Shown here piece by piece: positions 5,510 through 50,258 of a DNA stretch of 64,000 nt. This DNA comes from Minisyncoccota bacterium (GTDB taxonomy: Bacteria > Patescibacteriota > Minisyncoccia > Phycocordibacterales > UBA9973). The stretch is from positions 41,383 through 105,382 of the forward strand of contig JBAZSF010000001.1 in assembly GCA_041662525.1 (NCBI GenBank), written 5' to 3'. Below the pieces are notes generated by a model. The model saw only the letters and a list, made by a program, of their open reading frames with translations, was not told the DNA's origin and made no database searches. The first letter of the stretch is position 1; every line of letters begins with the position of its first letter. The position numbers were made by a program, and so were the translations under genes.

Positions 5510-5581
5510 GCTGGGAGACTAGGAATCGAACCTAGATTAAAGGCTTCAAAGGCCTCTGTCCTACCGTTAGACGATCTCCCA
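5510..5581 (-). tRNA. tRNA-Gln (anticodon UUG)
   Basis: Reverse complement folds as a cloverleaf: acceptor TGGGAGA/TCTCCCA, D-arm GTC-TAACGGTAG-GAC, anticodon stem GAGGC/GCCTT with loop CTTTGAA (UUG), T-arm CTAGG-TTCGATT-CCTAG, discriminator G. Confidence 0.8.
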
Positions 5582-13979: not shown

Positions 13980-16967
13980 ATGATTTCCCGAATATATGTA
14001 GCGTCCAAAGGAAAAGCTGACTTTATTAACTCTTACTTAATTTCCCATAAGTTGGGGAATGACAAAATCCTGAAAATCGCGGAAGCTCTAACAAACCCTA
14101 TCCTTGAAGAATTTTCTATAAATAAATTCCCAGCGACAGCTAAATTTTCTTATGCCATAGAAATAGGTTTCAAGCCAGGAGTCACAGACAATGTCGGGCA
14201 TACTGTGGAGGAAACTATTATGGACTTATTGCATATTGCTCCGGACGTTGGACGTCGGGGATTCGGACGTCCAACGTCCGGAGCTGATTTAGCAGTTTAT
14301 ACTTCTAAAATTTATTTAGTTTCTAATTCTAAAACAGAAGAGGTTGAGAAGATAGCTCTCTCGCTACATAATCCTCTGATTGAGCGTTCACATATCATAA
14401 GTATTTCTGATTTAAAAAAGAAAGGTTTACCATTAGAAGTTCCTAAAGTCATTTTGAAAAAGGCTACCCCAGTCATAAATGTCTCTCTTGATGTATCTGA
14501 CGAAGAACTTATAAAAATCGGTAGTGGAGGAATAATGGATGATAAGACAAAAGAAAGACGCGGTCCTTTGGCTCTTGATTTAGCGTCAATGAAAGTAATC
14601 CAAGAACATTTCAAAAAATTGAAAAGGGAGCCGACTGATATTGAGCTAGAATCTTTGGCACAAACTTGGTCTGAGCATTGCAAACATACTATTTTTGCAA
14701 ATCCTATCGATGACATCAAAGACGGTTTATATAAAACATATATAAAAGGCGCAACGAATTTAATTCGCAAACAAAAAGGAGCAAAAGATTTTTGTGTTTC
14801 TGTATTTAGTGATAATTCTGGAGGAATTATTTTTGATAAGGATTATTTAATTACTCATAAAGTAGAAACACACAATAGTCCTTCAGCTCTAGATCCATTT
14901 GGTGGAGCCATCACTGGCATCGTAGGTGTAAACCGGGACACAATAGGCTTCGGACTAGGCGCTAAACCGGTAGCTAATCTTTATGGTTTTTGCTTCGGTA
15001 ACCCTGAAGATAAAAGATCACTCTTTCGTGATAAAAATCTAACTCAAAAAATGCTTTCACCGAAAAGAATTATGGAGGGTGTAGTAAAAGGAATAAATGT
15101 TGGTGGAAATTGTTCTGGTATACCGACTCTTTCTGGTTTCGTTCGTTATGATGATAGATATAGAGGAAAGCCTTTGGTTTTTGCTGGTACGGTAGGGTTG
15201 ATTCCAAGAAATTTACCAGCCTCACCGAGTCTAGGCGGGCCCACCTTGGAAGGAAAAAAAAGGCTTTCACATCTCAAAAAAGCGCAAAACGGAGATTATG
15301 TCGTAGTTGTCGGAGGGAGAGTAGGTCTAGATGGTATTCATGGGGCGACTTTTTCTTCAGTGGTGATGGATTCAAGTTCTCCGGCGACTGCAGTGCAAAT
15401 CGGTGACCCAATAACTCAGAAAAAATTAAGTGATGCATTAATCAAAGAAGCGCGAGATCTGAATTTATATAACAGCATCACAGACAATGGCGCTGGAGGA
15501 ATTTCTTGTTCAGTTGCTGAAATGGCAAAAGAATGTGGCGGTGCAAAAGTTTCTTTAGAAAAAGTTCCATTAAAATACCCCGATCTTCGTCCATGGGAAA
15601 TTTGGATTTCAGAATCACAGGAACGTATGACTTTATCTGTGCCAAAGAAAAAATGGAATTTATTTAAAGAATTAATGGAAAAGAGAGGAGTAGAAGCTAC
15701 TATCATTGGAGAATTCACAAATTCTGGTAAATGTATTGTGGAATATTCTAATAAAAAAATCATGGATATTCCTATGGATTTTTTGCATGATGGTTTGCCG
15801 GAACAGCATTTATATACAAAACCCATTCAATTCACCTCTCCCCAAACCCCTCTCCATTATTTAGATAATGGAGAGGGGAAAGCAAGGGGTGAGGATTATA
15901 CGAAAGCCTTAGAAAAATTACTCGGTAGTAAAAATATCAGTGGATTTTCTTTTATTTCAGAGCAGTATGATCACGAAGTTCAAGGATCTTCTGTTTTAAA
16001 ACCACTCTCTGGACGAGGTCGTATCAATACCGATGCACAAGTTTTTCAGCCTGTTTTAAATTCAAACAAAGGAGTCATTCTATCTTCGAGCACTTATCCT
16101 TCATATGGAGACATTAGTACTTATCATATGGCCGCCTGCGCTATCGATAATGCTATTAGAAATACTCTTTGCGCTGGTGGAACACTTACACACTTAGCAA
16201 TTTTGGACAATTTCTGCTGGTGTTCATCCTATGATCAAACACGTTTAGCACAGCTCGTAGATTCAGTAAAAGCTTGTTACGACTATGCCGTCGGTTATGG
16301 AACACCCTTTATTTCTGGTAAGGATAGTATGTTTAATGACTTTAGGGGTTACGATAGTGACGGTAACCATGTGACTGTTTCTATCCCACCGACACTTCTT
16401 ATTTCAACGATTAGTGTTATGCCCGATTTAAATAAAACTGTTTCTCCAGAATTTAAAAATATAGGTGATATAATTTATTTATTAGGAGAAACAAATGATG
16501 AACTCGGAGGAGGAGAATATCTTAAAATGCTTGGAGCTATTGGCAACATTGTGCCCAAAGTAAATTTAAAAAAGAATATCAAAACTTATCGCGCCCTAGA
16601 AAAAGCAATTCAAAAAGAATTAATAGTTTCGGCAATGTCTGTTAATTCTGGCGGGCTGGCTATAGCACTCGCCAAAGCATGCGTAGGAGGAATGGTTGGA
16701 TGTAATGTTTCCCTTGACCCCATAGGCAAGATCTATGGGGTAGATGTAAAACTTTTCTCTGAAAGTCAGGGAAGGATTTTAGTTTCTGTAAATCCTAAAA
16801 ATATTTTAGGATTTGAAAAATTAATGAAGAATATTTTTTATGCCAAGTTGGGCAAAGTGGCCAAAGATAGTAAATTTGTTATTACGGATGGAAATAAAAA
16901 GATAATTGAAACAAGTGTAAAAAAATTGCACGATGCTTATCATAAATTTTCTAACTCACAAAAATGA
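13980..16967 (+). CDS. purL: phosphoribosylformylglycinamidine synthase subunit PurL with ~180-aa N-terminal (PurS-like) extension
   Basis: REPTDIELESLAQTWSEHCKHTIF and THNSPSALDPFGGAITGIVGVNRD motifs. The FGAM-synthetase core starts at about residue 215. No glutaminase domain (a separate purQ follows). Confidence 0.9.
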   Translation: MISRIYVASKGKADFINSYLISHKLGNDKILKIAEALTNPILEEFSINKFPATAKFSYAIEIGFKPGVTDNVGHTVEETIMDLLHIAPDVGRRGFGRPTSGADLAVYTSKIYLVSNSKTEEVEKIALSLHNPLIERSHIISISDLKKKGLPLEVPKVILKKATPVINVSLDVSDEELIKIGSGGIMDDKTKERRGPLALDLASMKVIQEHFKKLKREPTDIELESLAQTWSEHCKHTIFANPIDDIKDGLYKTYIKGATNLIRKQKGAKDFCVSVFSDNSGGIIFDKDYLITHKVETHNSPSALDPFGGAITGIVGVNRDTIGFGLGAKPVANLYGFCFGNPEDKRSLFRDKNLTQKMLSPKRIMEGVVKGINVGGNCSGIPTLSGFVRYDDRYRGKPLVFAGTVGLIPRNLPASPSLGGPTLEGKKRLSHLKKAQNGDYVVVVGGRVGLDGIHGATFSSVVMDSSSPATAVQIGDPITQKKLSDALIKEARDLNLYNSITDNGAGGISCSVAEMAKECGGAKVSLEKVPLKYPDLRPWEIWISESQERMTLSVPKKKWNLFKELMEKRGVEATIIGEFTNSGKCIVEYSNKKIMDIPMDFLHDGLPEQHLYTKPIQFTSPQTPLHYLDNGEGKARGEDYTKALEKLLGSKNISGFSFISEQYDHEVQGSSVLKPLSGRGRINTDAQVFQPVLNSNKGVILSSSTYPSYGDISTYHMAACAIDNAIRNTLCAGGTLTHLAILDNFCWCSSYDQTRLAQLVDSVKACYDYAVGYGTPFISGKDSMFNDFRGYDSDGNHVTVSIPPTLLISTISVMPDLNKTVSPEFKNIGDIIYLLGETNDELGGGEYLKMLGAIGNIVPKVNLKKNIKTYRALEKAIQKELIVSAMSVNSGGLAIALAKACVGGMVGCNVSLDPIGKIYGVDVKLFSESQGRILVSVNPKNILGFEKLMKNIFYAKLGKVAKDSKFVITDGNKKIIETSVKKLHDAYHKFSNSQK
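14238..14284. repeat. 47-nt perfect GC-rich palindrome inserted in frame in purL
   Basis: gctccggacgttggacgtc-ggggattcg-gacgtccaacgtccggagc has a 19-bp perfect stem and encodes APDVGRRGFGRPTSGA within the N-terminal domain. Confidence 0.7.
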
Positions 16968-18748
16968 AAACAGAAACTAAACCACATTCGACAGGCTCAG
17001 TGTCTACAACCTGCCAAAACTGTAAAGAAGACTTCGTTATTGAACCGGAGGATTTTAATTTCTACGAAAAAATGAAAGTTCCAGCTCCGACTTTTTGCCC
17101 TCTTTGTCGAGCAGAGAGGAGGTTTGCTTTTAGAAACGAACGTAAACTTTTTAAGGTAAAAGATACTTTTACTGGTAAAGAAATTTTTTCATTATACCCA
17201 GAAGAAAGTGGCAGAAAAATTATTACTCAAGAAGAGTGGTATGGGGATGGCTGGGATGCGATGGAATATGCCCGCGAATATGATTTTTCTCGACCGTTTT
17301 TCGAGCAATTTTTTGAACTTCAAAGAGAAGTGCCTATTTACAATCTAAATGTACAAAGAATGATTAATAGTCCATATTCTGGAAACGCTACAGCGTTAAA
17401 AAACTGTTACCTCTGTTTTCATTCTAATTATACTGAAGATAGTATGTATGGCAGTGCGAATGATCATTGCAAAGATTGCGTGGATAATTCTCACATTCAA
17501 TATTCAGAACGATGTTATGAATGTTTTTGGTTAGAAAAATGTTATCAATGTTATTTTTCTATAATGTGTGGAGAATCACACAATCTTTTTTTATGTCGTA
17601 ATTGTTTAGGATGCAATGATTGTTTTGGCTGCGCAAATTTACGCAAATCCTCTTACTGTATTTTCAATAAGCAATATTCTAAAGAAAATTATTTTAAAGA
17701 AATAGAAAGTATGAAATTGAATACTATTTTCGGCTTAAAAAAAATGCGAGGTAAAGCTAGAGCCTTTTGGTTAACTCAGCCAACAAAATCTCAACATGGT
17801 CTTAAAAATTTAAATTCAACAGGTTCTCATGTTACACATTGTAAAAATGTGAATGATAGTTTTTTGATCAGAGGAAGTGAAAATATGCGTTACTGCCAAC
17901 ATATGCAAGTACCTGCGAATAAAGATTGCTATGATGTTTCTAATTGGGGAGAAAATACAGAACTTTCTTATGAGACTTTAGTGTGTGGTGAAAATGCCTA
18001 CAACATGAAATTTAGTTTCAATTGCTGGCCGACATGCACGGACAGTGAATACTGCATGGATCTCTTTAGTTGCTCAGATTGTTTTGGCTGTGTGGGTTTA
18101 AAGAAAAAACAATATTGTATTTTCAATAAACAATATACTAAAGAAGAATACTATCAGATAATAGAAAAAATTAAAAAACAAATGGATGATATTCCTTATA
18201 CTGACAAGCAAGGTCTTATTTATAAGTACGGAGAATTTTTCCCAATAGAATTTTCTCAGTCTGGATATAATAATACTGTCGCAATTCAACATTTCCCACT
18301 TACGAAAACAGAAGCAGAAAAAAAGGGATACCTATGGGTAGAAGCGCCCCAGAGTGAATATAGAATTACTATTAAATCATCCGAACTTCCGAATTCTATT
18401 CCTGAAGAAAATGAAATTTTAAAAGAAATTATAGAATGCGAGAATTGTAAAAAAGCTTATCGGATAATGGAAAATGAATTAATTTTTTTGCGTAAAGAAA
18501 ATCTGCCTCTGCCTGATTTGTGTCATGATTGCAGATATGATAGAAGAATAAAGGATAGACTATCGATCAGATCGTATGACCAATCTTGCATGTGCGGAGG
18601 AACTTTAGACGAAACTGGAATTTATAAAAATACCGTTAAACATCTCCATGCAGATGAACCGTGCGGAGAGAAATTTAAAACTGGACACGCTCCAGAAAAT
18701 AAAGAGATAGTTTATTGTGAAAAATGTTATCAACAAGAAGTTTACTAG
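16964..18748 (+). CDS. cysteine-rich multi-zinc-ribbon-like protein of unknown function (594 aa); paralog of 47951..49681
   Basis: ATGA start/stop overlap with purL. About 50 Cys arranged mostly as CxxC pairs. N- and C-terminal C-x2-C...CP-x-CR ribbons; two internal ~170-aa repeats ending YCIFNKQY(S/T)KEEY; CRNCLGCNDCFGC run. Confidence 0.75.
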   Translation: MKTETKPHSTGSVSTTCQNCKEDFVIEPEDFNFYEKMKVPAPTFCPLCRAERRFAFRNERKLFKVKDTFTGKEIFSLYPEESGRKIITQEEWYGDGWDAMEYAREYDFSRPFFEQFFELQREVPIYNLNVQRMINSPYSGNATALKNCYLCFHSNYTEDSMYGSANDHCKDCVDNSHIQYSERCYECFWLEKCYQCYFSIMCGESHNLFLCRNCLGCNDCFGCANLRKSSYCIFNKQYSKENYFKEIESMKLNTIFGLKKMRGKARAFWLTQPTKSQHGLKNLNSTGSHVTHCKNVNDSFLIRGSENMRYCQHMQVPANKDCYDVSNWGENTELSYETLVCGENAYNMKFSFNCWPTCTDSEYCMDLFSCSDCFGCVGLKKKQYCIFNKQYTKEEYYQIIEKIKKQMDDIPYTDKQGLIYKYGEFFPIEFSQSGYNNTVAIQHFPLTKTEAEKKGYLWVEAPQSEYRITIKSSELPNSIPEENEILKEIIECENCKKAYRIMENELIFLRKENLPLPDLCHDCRYDRRIKDRLSIRSYDQSCMCGGTLDETGIYKNTVKHLHADEPCGEKFKTGHAPENKEIVYCEKCYQQEVY

Positions 18749-18795
18749 CGTCGCGCTTTGATGGACGATTGCGCGACATGATTTCGTAAAATCAA
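18749..18795. repeat. conserved hairpin element GTCGCGC-(14)-GCGCGAC + CATGATTTCGTAAAATCAA immediately 5' of the purQ ATG; homolog at 33583
   Basis: Near-identical 45-nt element also precedes mrdA, with a compensatory T-A to C-G change in the stem. Confidence 0.65.
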
Positions 18796-19551
18796 ATGAA
18801 AAAAATAAAACCAAAAATAATAATAATGTCGGGATATGGACTTAATTGTGAAGAAGAAACAAAGTTTGCTTTTGAAAAAGTCGGAGGGCTTGCAGACATT
18901 GTACACATTAATGACTTAATTACTAAACCTAAAATACTTTCGGAATATAAAATATTAGTTTTCCCAGGGGGATTTTCTTTTGGAGATGATACTGGTAGTG
19001 GAAAAGCGTATGCAAATAAATTTAAAAATCATTTAGCGAAAGAATTAACTGAATTTCTATCACGTGATACTCTTACTATTGGAATCTGTAATGGATTTCA
19101 AATAATAACTAATCTAGGAATTTTACCCGGAGGGCTTACTTATAATAAAAATGGGCAATATATAGATAGATGGGTTGACTTAGAAGCAAAAGGAAACAGT
19201 CCTTGGCTCCAAGGGGTTAAAAAAATATCACTACCTATAGCGCACGGTGAAGGACACTACGTAATTTCTCAAAAAGAATACCTAAAAATGAAACAAAATA
19301 AGGAAATTGCTTTTATTTATACAAATGGAGAAATATGTAAGTTTCAAAACCTCGAGAAAAATCCAAACGGATCAGAACATGACATTGCGGGAGTTTTAGC
19401 ATATAATGGCAGAGTGCTCGGCATGATGCCACATCCAGAAAGAGCCATGTTTTCACATCAAAGTCCTACGTGGCAACTAAATAAAAAGGTTTCAAAAGAT
19501 GGAGTAGGATTACAGATTTTTAAAAACGGTATTAATTATTTTAAAAAATAA
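18796..19551 (+). CDS. purQ: phosphoribosylformylglycinamidine synthase subunit PurQ (glutaminase)
   Basis: GICNGFQI catalytic Cys; HGEGHY...MMPHPER triad region. Confidence 0.9.
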   Translation: MKKIKPKIIIMSGYGLNCEEETKFAFEKVGGLADIVHINDLITKPKILSEYKILVFPGGFSFGDDTGSGKAYANKFKNHLAKELTEFLSRDTLTIGICNGFQIITNLGILPGGLTYNKNGQYIDRWVDLEAKGNSPWLQGVKKISLPIAHGEGHYVISQKEYLKMKQNKEIAFIYTNGEICKFQNLEKNPNGSEHDIAGVLAYNGRVLGMMPHPERAMFSHQSPTWQLNKKVSKDGVGLQIFKNGINYFKK

Positions 19552-19553
19552 AA

Positions 19554-20951
19554 ATGAGTGAGCTAAAAGAAAAATGTGGGATCGTAGGAATATACGGCAA
19601 GAATTTGCCTATTTCCAGATTGGCATTTTTTGCTTTATTTGCACTACAACATAGGGGGCAAGAAGCATCAGGAATTACTACAAATGATGGTAAAAAATTT
19701 CGTACCCACAAAGGCGCAGGACTCGTATCTCAGGTGTACACAGAAAAAACAATAAAAAAATTGACGGGACATATCGCTATTGGGCACAACAGATATTCTA
19801 CTTCAAAAGGCGGAGCCTTAAATCACGCTCAACCAGTTGTAAATAACGATAAATCTTTTGCCCTAGCGCACAATGGTAATTTACCAAGCACAAAAGCATT
19901 AGAAAATTTTCTTTCTTCAAAAAAAGTATTGAAAAAAGACCGTAATGATTCGGAACTCATGGCTGATGCGATTGATTTTTATATCAAAGAAGGTAATTCA
20001 ATTTCAAAATCTGTAGAAAAATCTTTTCCTTTATTTACTGGGGCTTTTTCATTAGTAATGATGACTAAGGATACCTTGGTCGCTGTGCGTGATGCTTATG
20101 GAATGCGCCCACTTGCCATAGGCAAGCTGGAAAAAGGTTATGTTGTTGCTTCAGAAACATGCGCTCTACAAACTGTCGGTGCAATATTTTTGAGAGAAGT
20201 AAAACCCGGAGAAATGATTGTTATAAATAAGAATGGTCTAAAAAGTATCCAATTAGCACCACCCAATCCGAAGCACGACATATTTGAATATGTTTATTTC
20301 GCTAGACCGGACAGTGTACTAAATGGTAAATTGATTTATGAAGTAAGGAGAAATTTTGGGAAAGTTCTCGCTCAAGAATTTAAGAAGAAAGTTGATATTA
20401 TCGTACCTGTCCCTGATACAGCTATGCCGGTAGCTATAGGATATAGTCAGACTTCAGGTATTCCAATGGAAATGGCTTTAGTGAAAAATCGCTATGTCCA
20501 TAGAACTTTTATCGAACCTGATCAAAAATCCAGGCGGAATAGTGTGGCGCTCAAACTCATACCTCTACCTCAAATTTTGAAAGGTAAAAAAATAATAGTA
20601 ATAGATGATTCTATTGTAAGGGGACACACTTGCAGAAAATTAGTTAAAACACTTTTTAAATCAGGCGCCAAAGAAGTGCATCTTTTGATTTCTTCTCCAC
20701 CAGTCCGCTTTCCAGATTTTTACGGTATGGATACTCCAAATCAAGATGAATTAATTGCGTCTTATAAAACTATAGAAGAAGTTCGTAAATTCATGGGTGC
20801 TACATCACTGCACTATCTTTCACTCGATGGATTGATAAAGGCCATTGGTCTACCAAAAGATAAATTATCTACTTCCTGCTTTACAGGTATTTATCCTATA
20901 GATTTAAAAGAACGCAGAGAGGAAGTGGATTATAATATTTCAAAGGAATAA
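19554..20951 (+). CDS. purF: amidophosphoribosyltransferase
   Basis: N-terminal MxxxCGIVGIYG (Ntn Cys) and PRTase domain; 465 aa. Confidence 0.9.
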   Translation: MSELKEKCGIVGIYGKNLPISRLAFFALFALQHRGQEASGITTNDGKKFRTHKGAGLVSQVYTEKTIKKLTGHIAIGHNRYSTSKGGALNHAQPVVNNDKSFALAHNGNLPSTKALENFLSSKKVLKKDRNDSELMADAIDFYIKEGNSISKSVEKSFPLFTGAFSLVMMTKDTLVAVRDAYGMRPLAIGKLEKGYVVASETCALQTVGAIFLREVKPGEMIVINKNGLKSIQLAPPNPKHDIFEYVYFARPDSVLNGKLIYEVRRNFGKVLAQEFKKKVDIIVPVPDTAMPVAIGYSQTSGIPMEMALVKNRYVHRTFIEPDQKSRRNSVALKLIPLPQILKGKKIIVIDDSIVRGHTCRKLVKTLFKSGAKEVHLLISSPPVRFPDFYGMDTPNQDELIASYKTIEEVRKFMGATSLHYLSLDGLIKAIGLPKDKLSTSCFTGIYPIDLKERREEVDYNISKE

Positions 20952-20964
20952 AAATAGTATCAGC

Positions 20965-21585
20965 ATGAAAAAAAAATTAGCAATATTAATTTCGAATGCT
21001 GGTACCGGCACTAACCTAAAAGCCATTATCGATGGAATTAATTCTGGGGTAATTAATGCCGAAATTTGCGCAGTTATTTCAGATACTGTAAATGCAAAAG
21101 GTCTAGAACACGCTAGAGCAAATAATTTAAAAGTCGAAATTTGTGAAAATAAAGAAAACCTATTGCCACTTTTGCAAAAATTAAATCCCAGTGAAGACTT
21201 AATGTATATTTGTTTAGCAGGTTGGAAACAAATTATCACAGATGAGGTGATTCTTGCTTTTCCAAATAAGATTTTAAACCTACACCCTGGATTAATCCCT
21301 GATACAACTAATGAAAATGTTAAAAATCCAGACGGAACGGAAGCCCTGTGGAATAAAGGCATGATGACCAATAAAGCAATTAAAAATTTCTTTGATCTAA
21401 AAGCTACTTTTGCTGGTTCAAGTATTCATTTTTTAACCTTAAATTTTGATTTTGGGCTAGTTTTAGGAAGAACTTTTGAGAAAATTGAAGAGGATGACGA
21501 TGTTGAGTCATTGTATTCAAGATTAAAGGCAAAAGAGAATCATTTGTATATAGAAGTTTTAGAAAAATTGTGTCAAAATGAATAA
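20965..21585 (+). CDS. purN: phosphoribosylglycinamide formyltransferase
   Basis: LAILISNAGTGTNLKAII ... NLHPGLIPD motif. Confidence 0.85.
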   Translation: MKKKLAILISNAGTGTNLKAIIDGINSGVINAEICAVISDTVNAKGLEHARANNLKVEICENKENLLPLLQKLNPSEDLMYICLAGWKQIITDEVILAFPNKILNLHPGLIPDTTNENVKNPDGTEALWNKGMMTNKAIKNFFDLKATFAGSSIHFLTLNFDFGLVLGRTFEKIEEDDDVESLYSRLKAKENHLYIEVLEKLCQNE

Positions 21586-22870
21586 CATGCAAAAAATATT
21601 AATAATTGGGGCTGGAGGAAGAGAGCATGCAATCGGATGGAAAGTAGCACAATCGCGGAACGCTGGGCAGATTTTTTTTGCTCCTGGAAATGGTGGCACA
21701 AGTAATATTGGAATTAATGTAGACCTAAAGGCAACTGATATTTCAGGGCTGTTAGAATTTGCCAAAAAAGAAAAAATTGATTTAACCTTGGCTTTACCCG
21801 ATGATCCGCTTGCTCTTGGTATCGTGGATGAATTTAAAAAAAATAATTTGCGTATTTTCGGTCCGACAAAACAAGCTAGTAAAATCGAATGGTCAAAAGC
21901 TTTTTCAAAAGATTTTATGCATCGACATAATTTGCCGACAGCGAAATTTGAAATATTTGATAATTTTGAAAAAGCAAAAGAATATGTTTCAAAACAATCT
22001 TTACCTATAGTTATCAAAGCAAGCGGTTTAGCTTTAGGTAAAGGTGTAATAATTTGCCAAAACTTAGAGGAAGCAAATGAGGCCCTAGAAAATATGTTTA
22101 TAAAAAAAGTTTTTGGGGATGCTGGTAATGAGGTGGTGGTAGAAGAGTTCCTCATTGGTCCAGAAATTTCTATTCATGCATTTTCAGATGAGAAAAATTA
22201 TAAAATGTTTCCGACTTCTCAGGATCATAAAAAGATAGGGGAAAATGATACTGGACTGAATACTGGCGGAATGGGTACGATAGCCCCACTTCCTTTTGTA
22301 ACAAATGAACTTTTAGAAAAGATTGAAAAAGATATTGTTGTTCCGACCGTGCATTCAATGGAGAAAGACGGAAATCCTTTTTTAGGTGTGATATACCCAG
22401 GACTAATACTCACAAAAGATGGTCCTAAGATTCTTGAATATAATGCGCGTTTTGGTGATCCAGAAACTCAAACTTATATGAGACTTTTAGATACAGATAT
22501 TTTGGATATTTTCAATTCATGTATTGATGGAAAACTTGATCAAATAGAAATAAATTGGAGCAAAAAATCTGCTTGCACCATAGTATTAGCTTCTGGAGGG
22601 TATCCAGAAAATTACGATAAAGGGAAGATAATTTCAGGAATTTCTGAAGCAGAAATGCAACCTGATATCGTTGTTTTTCATGCTGGTACAAAAATAAAAA
22701 ATGACGAACTTGTCACTAGTGGCGGGCGAGTACTAGGAATTACCGCCACAGGAGATACCCTAGAAGAAGCCCTTGCAAAAGCTTATAAAGCCATAGAAAA
22801 AATTTCATTTGAAGGAATGCAATATAGAAAAGACATCGGCCAGGGTGCATTAAAAATAAAAAATATTTAA
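21578..22870 (+). CDS. purD: phosphoribosylamine--glycine ligase
   Basis: ILIIGAGGREHAIGWKVAQS N-terminus and ATP-grasp core; 8-nt overlap with purN. Confidence 0.9.
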   Translation: MNNMQKILIIGAGGREHAIGWKVAQSRNAGQIFFAPGNGGTSNIGINVDLKATDISGLLEFAKKEKIDLTLALPDDPLALGIVDEFKKNNLRIFGPTKQASKIEWSKAFSKDFMHRHNLPTAKFEIFDNFEKAKEYVSKQSLPIVIKASGLALGKGVIICQNLEEANEALENMFIKKVFGDAGNEVVVEEFLIGPEISIHAFSDEKNYKMFPTSQDHKKIGENDTGLNTGGMGTIAPLPFVTNELLEKIEKDIVVPTVHSMEKDGNPFLGVIYPGLILTKDGPKILEYNARFGDPETQTYMRLLDTDILDIFNSCIDGKLDQIEINWSKKSACTIVLASGGYPENYDKGKIISGISEAEMQPDIVVFHAGTKIKNDELVTSGGRVLGITATGDTLEEALAKAYKAIEKISFEGMQYRKDIGQGALKIKNI

Positions 22871-24204
22871 TTATCCCAATTGAAGAATTGCTCTCTGTCT
22901 GGGCCGGTGCCGACGGAGATAATTTTTACATTCAGATCAGAGAGTTTATTTTTAATGTATTTTAAATAAGAAACAAGCTCTTTGGAAACTTTCTTTTTGT
23001 TATTTACTCCAGAATTTTTTTCTCCCCAACCATGAATATTTTCGGTCATCACATCTGTAACTTCATTTAAGTAAAGTGGAAATTCTTTTAGAATTTTTGT
23101 TTTGTTTTTCTCTTTAACTTTATACCCAGTCACTACTTTTATTTTATCACTCAAGCAAATATCAGCTTTATTAATGAAAATTCTATTGGCCCCCGATAGG
23201 GTAATAGCGTAACGCAAAGCAAATAAATCAAGCCAACCGCACATTCGTGGTCGTCCAGTCGTCGCTCCAAATTCTTGTCCTGCGTCTTGGAAAAGTTTTT
23301 CCAGAGCCGGATCTTTTATTCTAGCAGGAAAGCTTCCACCGCCTACTTTTGTCGTATAAGCTTTTATTACGCCATATATATTCCGTAAATAAGTATGAGG
23401 TACACCCAAGCCCAAGCAAACATTGGCTGGTAGGGTATTACTACTGGTGACATTAGGATAATCACCAAAATCAATATCCAGCATCACCGCCTGCGCACCT
23501 TCCGCTAAAATGTTTTTTCCTTCTTTTAATCTTTTTTGTATCAAAGATGCTAAGTCACAAATCTTCAATTTTTTAATTTCTTTTACTGCATTCAACCATT
23601 TTTCTTTAGCTTCTTTTATTTTTTTTATATCAATTTCAAAACCATATTTTTCTTTATACATATTTAAAAGATTCATATGAAATTCTGACAAAATAAACTC
23701 TTTCTTTTCAAAATCTGACAACAATATATCACCGATTAAAAACCCTCTCCTGTTTCGCACATCACCATAAGCAGGACCTATACCCCTAGATGTCGTACCT
23801 ACCTTGGTCCCCAGCTTGCCTCGGCGATGTTCTTCTGCTTGATCTAAAAAAGGATGTAAGTATGAAACTAACTTTGCCCGATTGGAAATAAAAAGACGGG
23901 GGGAGACATTGAACCCTAAATTTTTTAATTGCGATATTTCTGAAACTAAAGACAGGGCATCAACTACGACACCATTGCCAATATATAATTCTATATTTTT
24001 ATGAAGACAACCAGAAGGGATAATATGTCCGATAAAAGTGGTATTGCCTAATTTTAAAGTATGTCCTGCATTGGCTCCTCCTTGAAAACGTGCAACTCCA
24101 GAATAAATACCGTGGGATAAAAGTTGATCTATGTTTTTACCTTTTCCTTCATCTCCCCACTGAAGACCCACGACAACATCAATAAAACCATTTTTTTTAT
24201 TCAT
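22867..24204 (-). CDS. purA: adenylosuccinate synthetase
   Basis: VVVGLQWGDEGKGK P-loop and GNTTFIGHIIP motifs. Confidence 0.9.
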   Translation of the reverse strand: MNKKNGFIDVVVGLQWGDEGKGKNIDQLLSHGIYSGVARFQGGANAGHTLKLGNTTFIGHIIPSGCLHKNIELYIGNGVVVDALSLVSEISQLKNLGFNVSPRLFISNRAKLVSYLHPFLDQAEEHRRGKLGTKVGTTSRGIGPAYGDVRNRRGFLIGDILLSDFEKKEFILSEFHMNLLNMYKEKYGFEIDIKKIKEAKEKWLNAVKEIKKLKICDLASLIQKRLKEGKNILAEGAQAVMLDIDFGDYPNVTSSNTLPANVCLGLGVPHTYLRNIYGVIKAYTTKVGGGSFPARIKDPALEKLFQDAGQEFGATTGRPRMCGWLDLFALRYAITLSGANRIFINKADICLSDKIKVVTGYKVKEKNKTKILKEFPLYLNEVTDVMTENIHGWGEKNSGVNNKKKVSKELVSYLKYIKNKLSDLNVKIISVGTGPDREQFFNWDN

Positions 24205-24215
24205 AAAAAAATAAA

Positions 24216-25730
24216 TTACTGTCCAATACTATAGTTAGGGGACTCTTTAGTAATTGCAACATCATGAGGATGGCTTTCTTTTATGCCGGAATTAGTAATT
24301 TTAACAAATCTTGCATTATCTTGAAGAGTTTTTATGTTGGGTGTTCCACAATACCCCATACCAGCTCGAAGACCTCCGACGAGCTGATAAATCACTTCTG
24401 ATAAAACACCCTTAAAAGAAACTCTACCGACTATCCCTTCCGGTACAAGTTTTTTAATATCTTCTTCCATGTCTTGAAAATATCTGTCTTTAGAGCCGAG
24501 CTGCATAGCTTCAATAGAACCCATACCACGATAAGTTTTATATTTTCTAGATTCAAAAATAATTATTTCACCAGGAGATTCTTCAACTCCAGCAAAGAGG
24601 GAACCAGCCATTACAGAACTAGCTCCGGCGGCTATAGCTTTAGTAATATCTCCCGTATATCTAATACCTCCATCAGCAATAATAGGTACGCCAGAACCTT
24701 TTATGGCTTCCGCCACCTCATACACTGCAGAAAATTGAGGATAACCTACGCCAGTGATTATTCGAGTAGTACAAATCGATCCTGGCCCAATACCGACTTT
24801 TACGGCATCTGCTCCAGCTTTCACTAAAGCCAAAGCTGCATCTGCTGTAGCAATATTTCCCGCGATTACTTCTAATTGAGGAAATACTTTTTTTATTTTT
24901 TTTAACATTTCGATCACCCCTTTTGAATGACCATGAGCAGTATCAATAGCCACCACATCTACTCCATTTTGCACTAATGCTTGGACTCTTTCCAAGGTGT
25001 CATTTGATATCCCAACTGCCGCACCCACACGCAGACGACCTAAATTATCTCTAGAAGATTTCGGACGAGATTTTACTTTCATAATATCTTTGTAGGTAAT
25101 GAGACCGATAAGTTTATTTTTACTATCAACTAGTGGTAATTTTTCAACTTTGTATTCTGTTAATATCTTTTCAGCTTCTTTTAGATCGGTACGAATATTT
25201 CCAGTTATTAAATTTTCTTTAGTCATTATTTCACCTACCGAAAGTTCTAAATTTTTCTGAAATCGAAGATCCCGATTAGTTAAAATTCCTTTTAATTCCA
25301 TATTTTCATCAACAATTGGAATTCCACCGATCTTATTTTCTTCCATAATAGAAAGAGCTTCGCTCAATAAAGATTCTTCTGTTAGGGTTATGGGGTCATG
25401 GATCATTCCACTTTCGGAACGCTTAACCTTACGCACCTCGGCTGCCTGTTTTTCAATATTCATATTCTTATGAATAATTCCTATGCCTCCTTCTTGGGCC
25501 ATCGCTATAGCCATCGCACTTTCAGTGACCATATCCATGGCGGCAGAGACAAGAGGAACACTAAGTGTTATTTTTTTAGTCAGCTTTGAAGAAATATCAA
25601 CGTCACGAGGTAAAGTTTCGGAGTATTGTGGCACAAGCAAGACATCATCATAAGCCAAACCTTCTTTGAAGTTTTCGTTAAATTTTTTATTTCTATTTAT
25701 TACTTTATTTATTTTTACTTTCAAAGCCAT
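24216..25730 (-). CDS. guaB: IMP dehydrogenase
   Basis: [11 protein letters not shown], tandem CBS domains, catalytic loop [11 protein letters not shown]. Confidence 0.9.
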
Positions 25731-25746
25731 AATATATCGTGTATAC

Positions 25747-27321: not shown

Positions 27322-27352
27322 TATGCTATAATTTCTTTTCAAATATAAATTC

Positions 27353-47950: not shown

Positions 47951-49681
47951 TTAATAAACTTCTTGTTGGTAACACTTCTCGCAATAAACAATCTCTGGCC
48001 TTTCTGGGGCATAACTGGTCTCAAATTCTACTTCACATTTTTTGGTGCCGTGCGTATGATTTTCTTTATTGCACATACACTCTCTGCGCCAGAGTTTGCT
48101 GGGTCCTCTATTTTTAAAACGTTTAAGATGACGGCACTCAGGACAGTTACGTGGTATTGGTATTTGCATTCTTTTATAAAAAGCTAACTCATCTACAATA
48201 ACTCGATAATTTTTATTGCATTCCATGCATGCAAAAACCTCCTTATTTACATCAAAATCAGAAGATAATTCTAAAATGGAATCTGGGAAAGTTTTCCAAT
48301 CAATAGTTTCCTTGCCATATGTCCCACGCGGAGTATCTTCCCATTTGAAACCCTGCGCTAATGCTTCTTCTTTTGTTAGTGGAAATTCGTCCATAACCGA
48401 AGACTCATTATAGCCAAACGGAGATAATTCTTTTGGAAAAAAATCTCCGTAAATCCCCTCTTGTTTCATTTTTTCTACAATTTCTGCTTGGAGTTTTTCA
48501 TATTCTTCTTTAGAATACTGTTTATTTAAAATACAATAAGAACCTTTTATTAAACCAACACATCCAAAACAATTATTAGAATTCGGGCAATTTAAACAAT
48601 ATTCCATAAATTGTGAGCCCCAGCAATATTGAGAGCAAGTAACATTTGATGCTTCAAGCCCGGTATTTAGAGTATTATAAATCAATTCTGCCGTGCGCCC
48701 TGCAGTATTGCAATCCATACAATCTTTTGCCCCGCGCCAAACATGCATGGAATAAGCATTGTCTTCTGCGTCATAAGAATGAAAACACTGACGATTATTT
48801 TTGACGTTCGTCATATAATTTCCCGTAGAATTTACGGCATTAAAAATTTCAGCAAATTTTCTAGGTTTGTCTTTTATAAAATTTTGAAATTCTTTTTTAA
48901 AATTTTTCATACCCGAATGTGTGTCTAATTTAAAAGATTTTAATTTATTTTCATATTCTTCTTTGGTGTATGGTTCATCAAAAATACAATACTTTTGTCC
49001 CCGTAAATTTATACAACCCAAACAATTTGAGCAATTTCGGCAATCAAGAAGAAAGGAACTGTCAAGACAGCTATGGCATCCTTTGGAAAATCGTAAATTA
49101 TTACAGTCATAACAATCATCAACTTCGTACGATAGTTCTACTTTATTCGTAAAAGAACAATCGACTAGATCTTTTGAAAGCTGAATCCAATAACAATTGA
49201 TGCAATTCTCATTATTTGAGCTTTCTATGATCACATAACAGTTTTTATTATCAGCCGTATAATTTAAGTAATAACAATTTACATTTCTTAAGCCAGTCAA
49301 AGCTGGTTTTGGAACTTTTTTCCAAAGTTCACTAAACTGCTTAAAGAAAGATTCATTAGAATTATAATTTTGAGCATATTTATTAGCATTTAGGTCATCA
49401 CCATACCAACAATTAGAACACCAACTAGGGTAAGTTTTATTTGGACTAAAAATTGAAATTGTATCTTTTTTACAATTATCACAAATACGCTTGTAAAAAC
49501 ATCTTTCATTTTTAAAACAAAGTCGAAGTTGCATTCGACATTCTGGACAATTTTTAGGTGGCAATACTCCAATCTTTTCATAAAATCCAAAATCATCCGG
49601 CTCAATCGTGAAGTTTTTTTGACAACTTTGGCAAGTAGTAGGCACTGAGTCTTGCGAATGTGTTTTAGTTTGTACTTCCAT
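47951..49681 (-). CDS. cysteine-rich multi-zinc-ribbon-like protein of unknown function (576 aa); paralog of 16964..18748
   Basis: Same architecture as 16964..18748 and an identical C-terminal EIVYCEKCYQQEVY; 17-nt overlap with scpB. Confidence 0.75.
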   Translation of the reverse strand: MEVQTKTHSQDSVPTTCQSCQKNFTIEPDDFGFYEKIGVLPPKNCPECRMQLRLCFKNERCFYKRICDNCKKDTISIFSPNKTYPSWCSNCWYGDDLNANKYAQNYNSNESFFKQFSELWKKVPKPALTGLRNVNCYYLNYTADNKNCYVIIESSNNENCINCYWIQLSKDLVDCSFTNKVELSYEVDDCYDCNNLRFSKGCHSCLDSSFLLDCRNCSNCLGCINLRGQKYCIFDEPYTKEEYENKLKSFKLDTHSGMKNFKKEFQNFIKDKPRKFAEIFNAVNSTGNYMTNVKNNRQCFHSYDAEDNAYSMHVWRGAKDCMDCNTAGRTAELIYNTLNTGLEASNVTCSQYCWGSQFMEYCLNCPNSNNCFGCVGLIKGSYCILNKQYSKEEYEKLQAEIVEKMKQEGIYGDFFPKELSPFGYNESSVMDEFPLTKEEALAQGFKWEDTPRGTYGKETIDWKTFPDSILELSSDFDVNKEVFACMECNKNYRVIVDELAFYKRMQIPIPRNCPECRHLKRFKNRGPSKLWRRECMCNKENHTHGTKKCEVEFETSYAPERPEIVYCEKCYQQEVY

Positions 49682-50258
49682 TTTCTTCTTTTAATTCCCC
49701 CACCTCCGCAGATAAATCTTCTAAATTTTTAGCTGCAATATTAATAGAGTTATTAACTTCATCATAGCCTGGCAATTCTTCCACTGATCTTACTCCCATA
49801 AAAGATAGCAACTCAAAACTTGGTTTATAAATAAATTTCCGACTATCTTTCATATCTGTTGTTTTCTCTACAAGCCCTCGAATAGACAAAGCGCGTAAAG
49901 TGAAACTGGAATTTACCCCTCTTATATAATCAATCTCCGCTCTACTTACGCCATTTTTATAAAGAATAATAGAAAGTGTTTCCAAGCTCGCTTTAGAAAG
50001 CTCTTTATTCAACTCTTCTTTTTGCAAGTTTTCTATAAGTTCACTACATTCTGGAGCCGTGCCAAGCATAACATCATCTTCTTTCTCTATCACAACCACA
50101 CCTCTTTCTTTAAAACTTTCTTTCAATTTTTCTATTGCCTCGTTTATTTCTATCTGTCCCACTTTAAAAACTTCAGAAAGTTTCTTTCGTGACATTGGTT
50201 CTCCTTTCCAAAATAATATTGCTTCTATTTTCGATTCTAAATTTTTGTCTAAATTCAT
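49665..50258 (-). CDS. scpB: segregation and condensation protein B
   Basis: IEAILFWKGEPMSRKKL N-terminal winged-helix; 4-nt overlap with scpA. Confidence 0.85.
   Translation of the reverse strand: MNLDKNLESKIEAILFWKGEPMSRKKLSEVFKVGQIEINEAIEKLKESFKERGVVVIEKEDDVMLGTAPECSELIENLQKEELNKELSKASLETLSIILYKNGVSRAEIDYIRGVNSSFTLRALSIRGLVEKTTDMKDSRKFIYKPSFELLSFMGVRSVEELPGYDEVNNSINIAAKNLEDLSAEVGELKEENGSTN

Follow-up and report, generated by a model that had tools for sequence, protein, structure and literature searches.

The locus and its genes

The window, a stretch of 64 kb, carries two members, p1 and p2, of a zinc-finger/Cys-ladder solenoid family, referred to below as X. The p1 gene lies on the plus strand at positions 16964..18748 and encodes a protein of 594 aa, assigned to subfamily A by subfamily clustering. 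The reading frame described in the earlier note is a real gene, and its ATG overlaps the stop codon of purL (FGAM synthase, 995 aa; 13980..16967, plus strand; Pfam AIRS, AIRS_C and FGAR-AT_linker). Downstream, after a gap of 47 nt, follows purQ, encoding the glutaminase subunit (18796..19551, plus strand; Pfam GATase_5 and others), and then purF, purN and purD. A protein identical to p1 is on record (P0001) as "hypothetical protein WC671_00345, Candidatus Paceibacterota".

The p2 gene (47951..49681, minus strand) encodes a protein of 576 aa belonging to subfamily I, and was characterized by comparison with p1 and by an AlphaFold2 (AF2) model. The two proteins share 37% identity over their full length (E 2e-123), so the paralogue proposed earlier at this position is genuine. 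The gene adjoins scpAB, sharing 17 nt with the end of scpB. No signal peptide, hydrophobic N-terminus or transmembrane segment was found in either protein (maximum Kyte-Doolittle 19-residue means of 0.83 for p1 and 0.66 for p2), in agreement with the earlier description of a soluble cytoplasmic protein lacking a signal peptide.

Translational coupling to purL and the place before purQ suggest a reading of p1 as an accessory of purine biosynthesis, for example an assembly or regulatory subunit of PurL-PurQ. The order purL-X-purQ-purF-purN-purD was observed both in the window and in one further MAG, where the protein shares 69% identity; promoter-like and terminator-like sites were not in excess between p1 and purQ. 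However, the purL-X-purQ context was present in just 2 of the 23 regions with a subfamily-A copy (22 loci and the window), the remaining subfamily-A orthologues being located in ATPase cassettes or arrays without pur genes. In addition, p2 adjoins scpAB, and up to nine X copies occur at a single locus. The subfamily-A contexts largely refute a role in purine synthesis, which we regard as highly improbable, and the placement of p1 between purL and purQ is a lineage-specific relocation.

Domain layout of p1

The AF2 model of p1 had a pLDDT of 83.4 and a pTM of 0.85, and the independent model of p2, with the same topology, reached 85.8 and 0.87, respectively. All domains of p1 are given below with plus-strand coordinates. 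The protein begins with a treble-clef-like zinc finger (aa 13-60; 17000..17143) with ligands C17, C20, C45 and C48, followed by a conserved CR..RR helix (pLDDT about 89 in the AF2 model). A degenerate second finger (aa 61-95; 17144..17248) has D/T/T/E at sites 67/70/88/91 in p1, and this second Cys4 finger is retained in p2. It is succeeded by a helical linker (aa 96-135; 17249..17368) with helices at 99-102 and 112-122 (pLDDT 96-97).

The central part is modelled as two beta-solenoids. The first, with its cap (aa 136-243; 17369..17692), comprises about eight 12-residue coils with Cys/Ser ladders, a conserved ring C214-C217-C220-C223 and the cap YCIFNKQYSKENY. A helical hairpin (aa 244-285; 17693..17818; helices 240-249 and 255-269 in the model) joins it to the second; this hairpin is basic (net charge of +7 for p1), and no other segment varies as much across the family (mean top-residue frequency 0.36). 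The second solenoid and its cap (aa 286-396; 17819..18151) are homologous to the first, and display short strands with 3-residue spacing in the model, the cap YCIFNKQYTKEEY, and conserved C376 (94%) and C385 (87%).

A long helix and a small alpha/beta domain follow (aa 397-485; 18152..18418; pLDDT above 90), carrying the conserved motif GEFFP...S...YN...A....P......G..W and yielding no match in any library searched. The C-terminal copy of the treble-clef-like finger (aa 486-535; 18419..18568) has ligands C492, C495, C520 and C523, and the protein closes with a Cys/His module (aa 536-594; 18569..18745) containing C542, C544, H560, H562, C567, C585 and C588 and ending in the near-invariant IVYCEKCYQQEVY-COOH. 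By eye only, this last module was likened to the second half of the zf_Tbcl_2/TIGR04272 consensus (..RPVYC..C). Across X proteins, conservation is highest at the termini and lowest in the early coils and the hairpin.

The symmetric layout proposed earlier was confirmed, as the N-terminal ribbon recurs near the C-terminus with 37% identity over 41 aa (pairwise E 1e-9). The two internal repeats of about 170 aa were recovered as a duplication (residues 163-251 against 287-404, 36% identity, E 8e-21), but the aligning unit is about 120 aa and the offset 153 aa. Both repeats close, as described, with YCIFNKQY(S/T)KE(N/E)Y (residues 231-243 and 384-396), and the blocks agree at 33 of 39 nt. Since they encode the same amino acids in a genome of 34% GC, this near-identity does not imply recent gene conversion.

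The terminal fingers were compared with known finger families. Pfam zf_Tbcl (PF13451) gave weak matches in 19 of 54 X members at E<0.05 (best E 3.5e-7), and zf_Tbcl_2 (PF23477) in 14 of the 54 at the same threshold (best E 5.2e-6). The p1 protein itself matched neither PF13451 nor PF23477/TIGR04272 at E<=1, thus lying outside the Pfam gathering cutoff of zf_Tbcl, and residues 60-92 of p2 scored 15 bits against PF23477/TIGR04272, below the cutoffs of 27 and 36. Precomputed matches among the listed homologues comprised PF13451 in two and PF23477 in one. Both terminal fingers nevertheless show the arrangement of these families, with two CxxC pairs at the expected spacing, about 25 residues apart as in zf_Tbcl, and a conserved Cys4 set. 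The CxxC-x17-CxxC arrangement of TIGR04272 is absent from p1, which has D67/T70/T88/E91 at that site. In contrast to X, zf_Tbcl and zf_Tbcl_2 are fingers of only about 35 aa, of unknown function, corresponding to less than 20% of an X protein. Ligand conservation and spacing support the view that the terminal modules of X behave as real Cys4 treble-clef zinc fingers.

For the protein as a whole, searches of Pfam, NCBIfam, PADLOC and PDB sequences and a Foldseek search of the PDB returned nothing significant that explains it, and no enzyme signature was found in Pfam, NCBIfam or PADLOC. The earlier statement that no P-loop, catalytic motif or assignable family can be recognized is therefore upheld across these resources. 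The narrow, Cys-containing beta-solenoids of insect antifreeze proteins (CfAFP of spruce budworm, 1m8n; the 12-residue type of Tenebrio) and curli CsgA (8c50) resemble X in their short regular coils. Unlike X, which has neither signal peptide nor transmembrane segment, these proteins are secreted and have disulfides or an amyloid core. Pentapeptide-repeat proteins are set apart by their A(D/N)LXX repeat, with a phase and coil of 5 and 20 as against 3 and 12 in X, and no Pfam Pentapeptide match was obtained.

Cysteine register, conservation and distant relatives

The cysteine content of p1 was 39 (6.6%), fewer than the approximately 50 counted in the earlier note, and that of p2 was 43, the range being 6.6-7.5%. 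CxxC pairs hold 26 of the 39 Cys of p1 rather than nearly all of them. Runs with Cys at every third residue are present as described, for instance C211-C214-C217-C220-C223. From residue 148 to 232, every one of the 15 Cys shares a single phase modulo 3, for which the chance under independence is (1/3)^14, about 2e-7. In the central region of 54 homologues, Cys-Cys lags were multiples of 3 only, with a peak at 12.

According to PMC11795689, AF2 over-predicts beta-solenoids for repeats. The lags at multiples of 3 and the peak at 12 back the solenoid reading independently of AF2, and the centre of X is modelled as two homologous narrow beta-solenoids with about 12 residues per turn. That the Cys point inward, and how the C214-C223 ring is arranged, we infer from the periodicity only.

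The same register was found in small phage and metagenome proteins. The p1 sequence matched phrog_15341 with E 0.0046 over residues 147-390, and the X family profile matched phage/metagenome proteins with E 6e-12 (L085) and 1e-10 (L084), the cap aligning residue by residue. Like X, phrog_15341 and the small CXX-repeat proteins have Cys at every third residue, then the cap CFGC-RN-x-x-KS-x-Y-x-ICNVQ-x-TKEEYE and a helix. The phrog_15341-type proteins are 75-300 aa long and very acidic, with a single module of near-perfect (C-S/F-D/G/R)n and no zinc fingers, whereas X contains two such modules in degenerate form, their ladders mixing Cys, Ser and aliphatic residues, along with four or five further domains, and is chromosomal in Paceibacteria. 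The homology between X and phrog_15341 is limited to the level of domains.

Cys at every third residue is also a feature of heterocycloanthracin/sonorensin precursors (PF27784, which serves as a "Sonorensin" marker in PMC13289728), and precomputed PF27784 matches were present in 3 of 120 listed small relatives. X could on this basis be a CXX-repeat RiPP precursor or a relative of one, with Cys converted to thiazoles. Such precursors, however, are short leader-plus-core peptides encoded beside cyclodehydratase/dehydrogenase genes, while p1 is a multidomain protein of 594 aa with confident globular domains, YcaO/cyclodehydratase genes are absent among the neighbours, and the small relatives terminate in a folded, conserved cap instead of a free core peptide. 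No such NCBIfam or Pfam match was obtained for p1, p2 or the phage proteins, the Pfam copy searched being one without PF27784. Size, folded domains, the cap and the lack of modification enzymes disfavour the precursor reading to the point where we give it almost no credence, and the likeness of X relatives to PF27784 is probably compositional.

Conservation differed sharply between the fingers and the centre. The terminal-finger Cys (C17/C20/C45/C48 and C492/C495/C520/C523) showed no variation in 54 sequences and 85-99% conservation in 333, with values of 95-97% for the N-terminal finger. The ring C214/C217/C220/C223, which spans exactly one turn, was 79-95% conserved. Other central Cys, that is, those outside the ring and other than C376 and C385, were only 18-76% conserved, with Ser, Leu or Val often in their place. 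Their co-variation was weak (phi <= 0.35), whereas the Cys4 quartet 67/70/88/91, which p2 shares with about 45% of the family, is gained and lost as a unit (phi 0.99). Co-evolution of a Cys quartet, which the earlier note proposed to look for, is thus seen at this site and only weakly in the centre, and the note's zinc-ribbon modules hold for the ends, with their conserved Cys4 sets, but give way to two beta-solenoids in between.

These data bear on the earlier proposal that X is a poly-metal-binding protein (Zn or Fe-S), here widened to storage or scaffolding, with most of its approximately 40 Cys as ligands. With Cys at every third residue, a 12-residue turn can show four thiols to its centre, so inward stacks of four Cys per turn could accommodate metal ions or clusters in a column. 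The high Cys content, the conserved one-turn ring and the presence of cutA1 (divalent-ion tolerance protein CutA1) next to X arrays in seven loci are in line with this, as are the phage relatives, which consist almost purely of (C-x-x)n, lack a hydrophobic core and would be hard to stabilize without metal or disulfides. However, the proposal was to be abandoned if the Cys pairs were unconserved among homologues, and this is what was found for most central positions, which also lack the coupling seen in the Cys4 control. No ferredoxin (Fer4), radical-SAM or metallothionein match was obtained in the 54 members, and the motif CxxCxxCxxxCP is absent; ferredoxin-like and metallothionein-like metal binders differ from X in having a conserved cluster-binding Cys motif, or a very high CxC/CC density in a small protein. 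We therefore consider the poly-metal reading unlikely. Poor conservation and independent variation suggest that most solenoid Cys are probably core residues and not metal ligands. As the finger Cys are conserved and most central ones are not, a load of about 3-4 Zn per p1 rather than dozens is expected: about three structural Zn, or four if the ring C214/C217/C220/C223 binds metal.

Arrays, neighbouring ATPases and the proposed role

Homologues of p1 formed at least 7,993 clusters at 90% identity and those of p2 at least 6,134, and the family comprised 2,155 representatives at 50% identity (E<=1e-30). Every named source organism belonged to a Paceibacteria/Parcubacteria lineage. Co-directional arrays of 2-9 copies were present in 57 of 84 sampled regions (83 loci and the window), and one MAG carried at least 11 copies over two sampled loci (about 19 kb). 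Median identity was 43.5% to the best neighbour compared with 56.7% to a copy in another genome, which indicates that the array copies are ancient, and subfamilies retain 65-80% identity between genera. On these sequence comparisons, X appears to be an ancient multigene family restricted to Paceibacteria.

The commonest neighbour from outside the family was a TrwB/TraD/VirD4-like ATPase without transmembrane segments, present in 30 of 83 loci, on the same strand as X save in one case and often abutting both array ends. In the other 53 loci no VirD4-like ATPase was found within 8 kb, nor was one found in the window with its two X genes. Orthologues of p1 usually lie directly after the long ATPase (L007, L016, L024) or within two genes of it (L006, L011, L015). 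Reciprocally, X genes were located beside 11 of the 12 closest metagenome ATPase homologues, while no X was found near more distant ones (L143-L169). The ATPases slightly exceed the Pfam cutoffs for TrwB_AAD_bind, T4SS-DNA_transf and TraG-D_C and fall far under every NCBIfam equivalog cutoff. The long ATPase carries a zf_Tbcl_2/TIGR04272 finger at 46-48 bits (47.8; cutoff 36). The synteny may in part reflect inherited gene order (MreB...ATPase-X-ATPase-DnaJ...CysS in Nomurabacteria).

Patescibacteria genomes hold about two VirD4-like T4SS coupling proteins (T4CPs) each, rarely near virB4 and possibly exapted (PMC12102498), and the X-neighbour ATPases fit this census. They differ from VirD4/TraD/TrwB coupling proteins in lacking the N-terminal membrane anchor; no relaxase or channel genes were found near them, and X proteins show no resemblance to any known T4CP substrate or adaptor.

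One reading of this neighbourhood is that X is effector cargo, recognized by the VirD4-like ATPases (for example through the C-terminus ...YCEKCYQQEVY) and delivered by the T4SS into a host cell. Adjacency to coupling-protein-like ATPases, the strictly conserved extreme C-terminus, the many paralogues per reduced genome, as in effector repertoires, and a chaperone gene, dnaJ, after the short ATPase in 13 loci are consistent with it, and T4SS genes have an important part in how one Patescibacterium grows as an epibiont (PMC12102498). On the other hand, only 148 of 5,713 Patescibacteria T4CPs have virB4 nearby and strain ML1 does not require its T4CP (PMC12102498), the X-neighbour ATPases have no anchor, and VirB4, VirB6 and pilus genes are absent among recurrent neighbours. 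Identities of 65-80% between genera are unlike those of typical fast-evolving effectors, and zinc fingers and solenoids unfold poorly as substrates, making delivery of X as an effector rather unlikely.

TIGR04272-type fingers occur elsewhere with nucleic-acid enzymes, which is a lead for X as a rod-shaped nucleic-acid mimic, in the manner of pentapeptide-repeat proteins and phage Ocr, and/or a nucleic-acid-binding regulator of a translocase, restriction or defence enzyme; the acidic rods would imitate DNA, and the treble-clef fingers could bind DNA or RNA. Family median charges are -5 and -3 for the acidic solenoids and +2 and +4 for the mildly basic fingers, the versions that stand alone in phages read (C-S-D)n and have a pI of 4.5-5.2, and the partner ATPases come from a DNA-pumping superfamily. 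We nonetheless judge this quite unlikely, as no match to a nucleic-acid-binding domain and no PADLOC match were obtained, restriction and defence genes were absent nearby, and the overall pI of about 6.2 is atypical for DNA-binding proteins.

Gene order could also point to a self-assembling cytoskeletal or structural element whose solenoid ends stack head to tail as in bactofilin or curli, with paralogues co-polymerizing: mreB was found near arrays in 15 loci, rodA is recurrent, and operon-like arrays co-express several paralogues that are ancient and conserved. The mreB/rodA adjacency may, however, be inherited synteny, and conserved non-solenoid caps and flanking globular domains normally block end-to-end stacking, so that such an element seems very unlikely.

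From gene adjacency we infer a function of X in partnership with the ATPases, and tentatively prefer a reading in which p1 is a soluble, non-enzymatic, zinc-stabilized scaffold and X proteins are adaptors or cargo of VirD4/TraD-like ATPases. The solenoid interiors would be lined by in-register Cys/Ser/aliphatic ladders, each closed by the cap CFGC-x-NL-x4-YCIFNKQYTKEEY, with treble-clef Cys4 fingers at both ends and the small alpha/beta domain before the C-terminal ones. X members would act with two soluble VirD4/TraD-like ATPases (FtsK-HerA superfamily) that bracket arrays in many genomes. The conserved zinc-finger ends could provide a common docking handle, the long ATPase having the same finger type, while the variable early coils and basic hairpin would make every paralogue specific in its role as adaptor or cargo. 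Within the window, p1 has moved into the purine operon, and p2 is found beside scpAB.

A bolder and more doubtful possibility is that X arrays and the two soluble VirD4-like ATPases form an unrecognized Paceibacteria-specific machine, with the rods as exported effectors or DNA-mimicking adaptors built on a Cys-ladder fold variant. If so, a DNA-translocase-type motor would handle ten or more ancient paralogous rods, and the "orphan" coupling proteins of Patescibacteria would be explained. The fold would be a new Cys-ladder solenoid variant, possibly with metal at the C214-C223 ring, common to widespread small phage proteins.

Paceibacteria genomes are roughly 1 Mb or less, and yet one MAG keeps at least 11 copies of a 1.7-kb gene. 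X numbers thousands of proteins but lacks a name, a domain model, a structure and a paper, and is among the larger blind spots of the candidate phyla radiation. Handles on the family are provided by the abundant VirD4-like ATPases of unexplained role (PMC12102498) and by the solenoid module in small acidic phage proteins. A cytoplasmic 12-residue solenoid with a Cys/Ser-ladder core would be an unusual rigid rod, of interest to protein designers.

Domain plan and zinc-finger ends

The gene for p1, a 594-aa protein, lies at 16964-18748 on the plus strand; its ATG overlaps the purL stop, and the purQ start follows 47 nt downstream. The paralogue p2, which the earlier note had placed at 47951-49681 on the minus strand, proved to be full-length (576 aa, 37% identity to p1, E 2e-123), and no third copy was detected in the 64-kb window by tblastn. 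The cysteine content had been overestimated: p1 contains 39 Cys (6.6%) rather than about 50, and p2 contains 43, of which 26 and 30, respectively, rather than nearly all, fall in CxxC pairs. Neither protein has a hydrophobic segment fit for a transmembrane helix or for a signal peptide, the latter in line with the earlier note, which saw none in p1. A secreted effector is one rival reading of the family.

The internal symmetry described for p1 was confirmed. The N-terminal ribbon aligned with residues 492-532 (37% identity, E 1e-9), and residues 163-251 aligned with residues 287-404 (36% identity, E 8e-21), each internal repeat being closed by the block YCIFNKQY(S/T)KE(N/E)Y, whose two copies are identical at 33 of 39 nt. 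These repeats were visible only by segment-versus-segment comparison and were not revealed by whole-protein self-BLAST.

AlphaFold2 models, built with family alignments, shared one topology (pLDDT 83.4 and pTM 0.85 for p1; 85.8 and 0.87 for p2). In the p1 model, a beta-hairpin/helix finger (aa 13-55) and a second finger position (aa 61-95) come first; a helical linker then leads to two stretches of short strands (about aa 136-235 and about aa 286-390) that are separated by a helical hairpin (aa 240-270). A long helix and a small alpha/beta domain extend to about aa 485, and two finger-like modules form the C-terminal part.

Across 54 sequences, C17/C20/C45/C48 and C492/C495/C520/C523 were invariant or nearly so, as were C542/C567/C585/C588 together with C544, H560 and H562. 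In an alignment of 333 sequences of diverse paralogues, finger ligand positions were 85-99% conserved, with the exception of C544 (62%). Weak Pfam matches to zf_Tbcl and zf_Tbcl_2 were obtained for 19 and 14 of the 54 members, respectively; p1 itself remained below both thresholds. A further N-terminal quartet (positions 67/70/88/91) is missing from the subfamily of p1 and occurs in p2 and in about 45% of family members. Its positions 70, 88 and 91 occur all-or-none (phi 0.99), while position 67 is kept more widely (phi about 0.6). Since such co-occurrence is expected of a metal-binding unit, the quartet served as a positive control. The multi-zinc-ribbon architecture suggested earlier was thus retained for the ends, with their conserved finger Cys, and given up for the centre, where paired beta-solenoids are predicted.

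Predicted central solenoids and their phage relatives

All 15 Cys in residues 148-232 of p1 share a single phase modulo 3 (about 2e-7 expected by chance), a result that is model-independent. In the same region of 54 homologues, the Cys-Cys lag spectrum was zero off multiples of 3 and peaked at 12. When written in 12-residue rows, the sequences showed Cys/Ser ladders at columns 12, 3, 9 and 6, with aromatic or aliphatic residues at column 1. From this register, period and ladder pattern, we read each central module as a solenoid of about eight 12-residue coils whose core consists of Cys, Ser and aliphatic residues and which ends in the conserved cap CFGC-x-NL-x4-YCIFNKQYTKEEY. The early coils reached a pLDDT of only 58-78, and AlphaFold2 is known to predict solenoids too readily for repeat sequences (PMC11795689); handedness and Cys orientation are features that we infer.

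The earlier note had taken p1 for a poly-metal-binding protein (Zn or Fe-S). Among 333 sequences, well-conserved central Cys were C214 (79%), C217 (89%), C220 (95%), C223 (83%), C376 (94%) and C385 (87%); the others were conserved at 18-76%, with Ser, Leu and Val as common substitutes. Their presence or absence was nearly independent (phi ≤ 0.35 versus 0.99 in the control quartet). For the central part, most Cys are thus poorly conserved among homologues, the outcome that the earlier note had named as refuting its reading, and both the conservation and the co-occurrence tests argue against the poly-metal or Fe-S reading, which we mostly reject: judged from the alignments, most central Cys are probably not ligands and would pack the solenoid core. 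The four conserved Cys of C214-C223 together occupy exactly one 12-residue turn, where a putative further Cys4 site may lie. We would expect about three Zn in p1, four if this ring binds metal, and one more in p2.

Stand-alone counterparts of the module were found in an IMG/VR scan, where six loci (L084-L089) encode small proteins of 118-304 aa with near-perfect (C-x-x)n sequence, e.g. CSDCSDCFGCSDC (examples at L085:6120-6476, L086:7680-9476 and L087:7935-8996). These phage proteins are acidic and consist almost entirely of Cys-x-x repeats (CSDCSDCFGC...); they are sometimes encoded by tandem gene pairs, and phrog_31265 forms an additional C-terminal domain in some of them. In two of the six, the terminal sequence CFGCRN..KS.Y.ICNVQ.TKEEYE can be aligned with the cap at every residue, and the family profile matched these two at E 6e-12 and 1e-10. 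Most of these proteins belong to phrog_15341, of unknown function (four of four scanned matched), to which p1 gave a weak match (E 0.0046). At the level of sequence, the solenoid-plus-cap module thus appears in stand-alone form in phages.

A search with one phage CXX-repeat protein returned 415 small relatives. Among the 120 listed, three (P0432, P0435 and P0454) had a precomputed match to PF27784 (PF27784.1), which a 2026 paper takes as a 'Sonorensin' marker (PMC13289728); on that basis the proteins could be read as RiPP precursors. Because the cap is folded, NCBIfam gave no match and no modification enzymes lie nearby, we regard this likeness as compositional similarity to CXX-repeat bacteriocin precursors, and we reject RiPP/sonorensin membership of the phage-type relatives as well as a RiPP precursor role for the family.

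Charge is unevenly distributed, with acidic solenoids and mildly basic fingers; the pI of the phage versions is 4.5-5.2. This pattern speaks for a rival reading in which the proteins mimic or bind nucleic acid.

Extent and genomic setting of the family

Neither p1 nor p2 matched Pfam, NCBIfam or PADLOC above cutoff; hits to HNOB, Trm112, CpcG4 and CblA (E 0.01-0.2) were taken to be noise. In the PDB, no match came from sequence searches, whether with one protein or with a 54-sequence profile, nor from Foldseek at E ≤ 1e-3. The earlier view that p1 belongs to no known family therefore holds for these libraries, and no description of the family was found in literature searches.

In word-indexed searches, the matches amounted to at least 7,993 clusters at 90% identity for p1 and at least 6,134 for p2. 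The best 120 matches listed per search (240 in total) were mostly 550-600 aa long; those with a name were labelled 'hypothetical protein', and nearly all their named sources were Candidatus Paceibacterota, Nomurabacteria or Minisyncoccia. When 1.84 billion representatives were searched exhaustively with a profile, 5,121 matched at E ≤ 1e-3, of which 2,155 reached E ≤ 1e-30. Almost all of the top 150 were full-length, and weaker ones may cover only the fingers. At least 586 loci matched in GTDB species representatives. Informative names there were Nomura-, Staskawicz-, Jorgensen-, Lipton-, Sungii- and Giovannonibacteria, 'Parcubacteria', Paceibacterota, Minisyncoccia and Patescibacteria; the remaining records bore names that carry no information or look generic (many 'uncultured Candidatus Saccharibacteria', several simply 'bacterium', one Gammaproteobacteria). 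The family is thus very large and restricted to one lineage.

Gene neighbourhoods were compared in 84 regions, namely 83 loci from other genomes and the window. Two to nine co-directional copies within about 17 kb, frequently with 4-nt overlaps, were present in 57 of the 84, and one MAG carries at least 11 copies over two loci (L021, L026). Some array members are split over two adjacent ORFs (L018:8252-10039, L026:11397-13145, L060:1790-3535); such cases may be due to frameshifts, pseudogenes or assembly errors and hint that genes arise and are lost inside arrays.

In the window, p1 (X in the gene orders below) sits in the order purL-X-purQ-purF-purN-purD, followed by purA and guaB on the minus strand and then guaA and purH, which together make up a compact island for de novo purine and GMP/AMP synthesis (13980-28852, purL to purH). 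Candidate phyla radiation organisms are usually without nucleotide biosynthesis. An accessory role in purine synthesis would fit this position; however, the purL-X-purQ insertion is shared with one other MAG and is absent from the other 21 loci with a subfamily-A copy, so it was read as relocation, and the role was rejected as lineage-specific context. Promoter- and terminator-like sites between purL, X and purQ showed no excess over shuffled controls. No Pfam match at E ≤ 1e-5 covers the first ~190 residues of PurL (13980-16967, 995 aa), a stretch that could represent a fused PurS-like segment.

The p2 gene follows scpA-scpB (49665-50983) and overlaps the scpB end by 17 nt. As the order ScpA-ScpB-X...VanY recurs in L047, p2 is probably co-transcribed with these condensin accessory genes. 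A 287-aa ORF (51021-51884, minus strand), flanked by scpA and the gene for a leucyl aminopeptidase, had no Pfam match at E ≤ 1e-5, and a tRNA (5511-5581, minus strand) was the sole Rfam match at gathering threshold in the window.

Neighbouring ATPases and divergence of the copies

The commonest non-family neighbour was a P-loop ATPase, found at 30 of the 83 loci (47 ORFs), on the same strand with one exception and frequently abutting the array. It occurs in a short form (about 485-520 aa) and a long form (about 690-800 aa), both of which matched TrwB_AAD_bind, T4SS-DNA_transf, TraG-D_C and DUF87 just above Pfam cutoffs and fell far below the cutoffs of TraD/VirD4-like NCBIfam models. These VirD4/TraD-like proteins lack transmembrane segments in both forms. 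In the long form (L006, L007, L016, L024, L039, L040, L071, L081; e.g. L016:5795-7981), a genuine zf_Tbcl_2/TIGR04272 finger (46-48 bits) precedes a Pro/Ala-rich tail. In L016 and L006, the two sequences examined, this tail is long, also rich in Lys, and has the conserved ending VPEDVLxKILE-COOH.

The usual order is long ATPase, one to four X genes and then the short ATPase, a paralogue of the long form, with p1 orthologues usually directly after the long ATPase (L007, L016, L024) or at most two genes away (L006, L011, L015). The observed adjacency of 36% compares with roughly 4% expected for random 16-kb windows, an enrichment of about nine-fold; this is a rough estimate rather than a computed statistic, which assumes about two VirD4-like genes per genome. 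Reciprocally, X was present in 25 of 80 metagenome loci centred on ATPase homologues; it lay beside 11 of the 12 closest homologues and beside none of the most distant, so the link is specific to one clade. No VirD4-like ATPase occurs in the 64-kb window. In 2,918 Patescibacteria genomes, 5,713 VirD4-like T4CPs have been reported, only 148 of them near virB4, and exaptation was suggested (PMC12102498).

Further recurrent neighbours are housekeeping genes or small uncharacterised ones; MreB, DnaJ, CysS, RodA, RRF, RsmE, a sigma factor, TrmB, GH130 and DUF5674 look like housekeeping synteny. Genes for VirB4, VirB6, pili and YcaO were absent from the recurrent neighbours. The divalent-ion tolerance protein CutA1 adjoins arrays at seven of the 83 loci (L003:12962-13267, L053:4132-4446 and five others), and a PaaX-like PaaX_M protein (Cas2-like domain) recurs near arrays at seven loci.

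The structural description given here is, in our judgement, highly probable. The proteins would be non-enzymatic and might be adaptors or cargo of the flanking ATPases; this functional link is doubtful, and structure and link taken together are put forward tentatively. A filament former is a further rival reading. The parts are of known kinds (treble-clef fingers and a beta-solenoid), whereas the family, the CXX-solenoid-plus-cap module and the association with orphan VirD4-like ATPases were undescribed in the libraries and literature searched. That X marks a truly new ATPase-plus-repertoire system seems to us unlikely.

Conservation across the family peaks in fingers and caps and falls to its lowest values in the early coils, at 0.42-0.44, and in the basic inter-solenoid hairpin, at 0.36; the fingers may act as constant 'handles', with variable solenoid and hairpin surfaces. 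Same-subfamily proteins of different MAGs are 65-80% identical. The best same-locus neighbour was 43.5% identical (median) versus 56.7% for the best match in another genome, and 95% of copies were nearer to a copy elsewhere than to any locus neighbour. By these identities the copies are ancient, which argues for long-standing sub-functionalisation and against recent amplification or an arms race.
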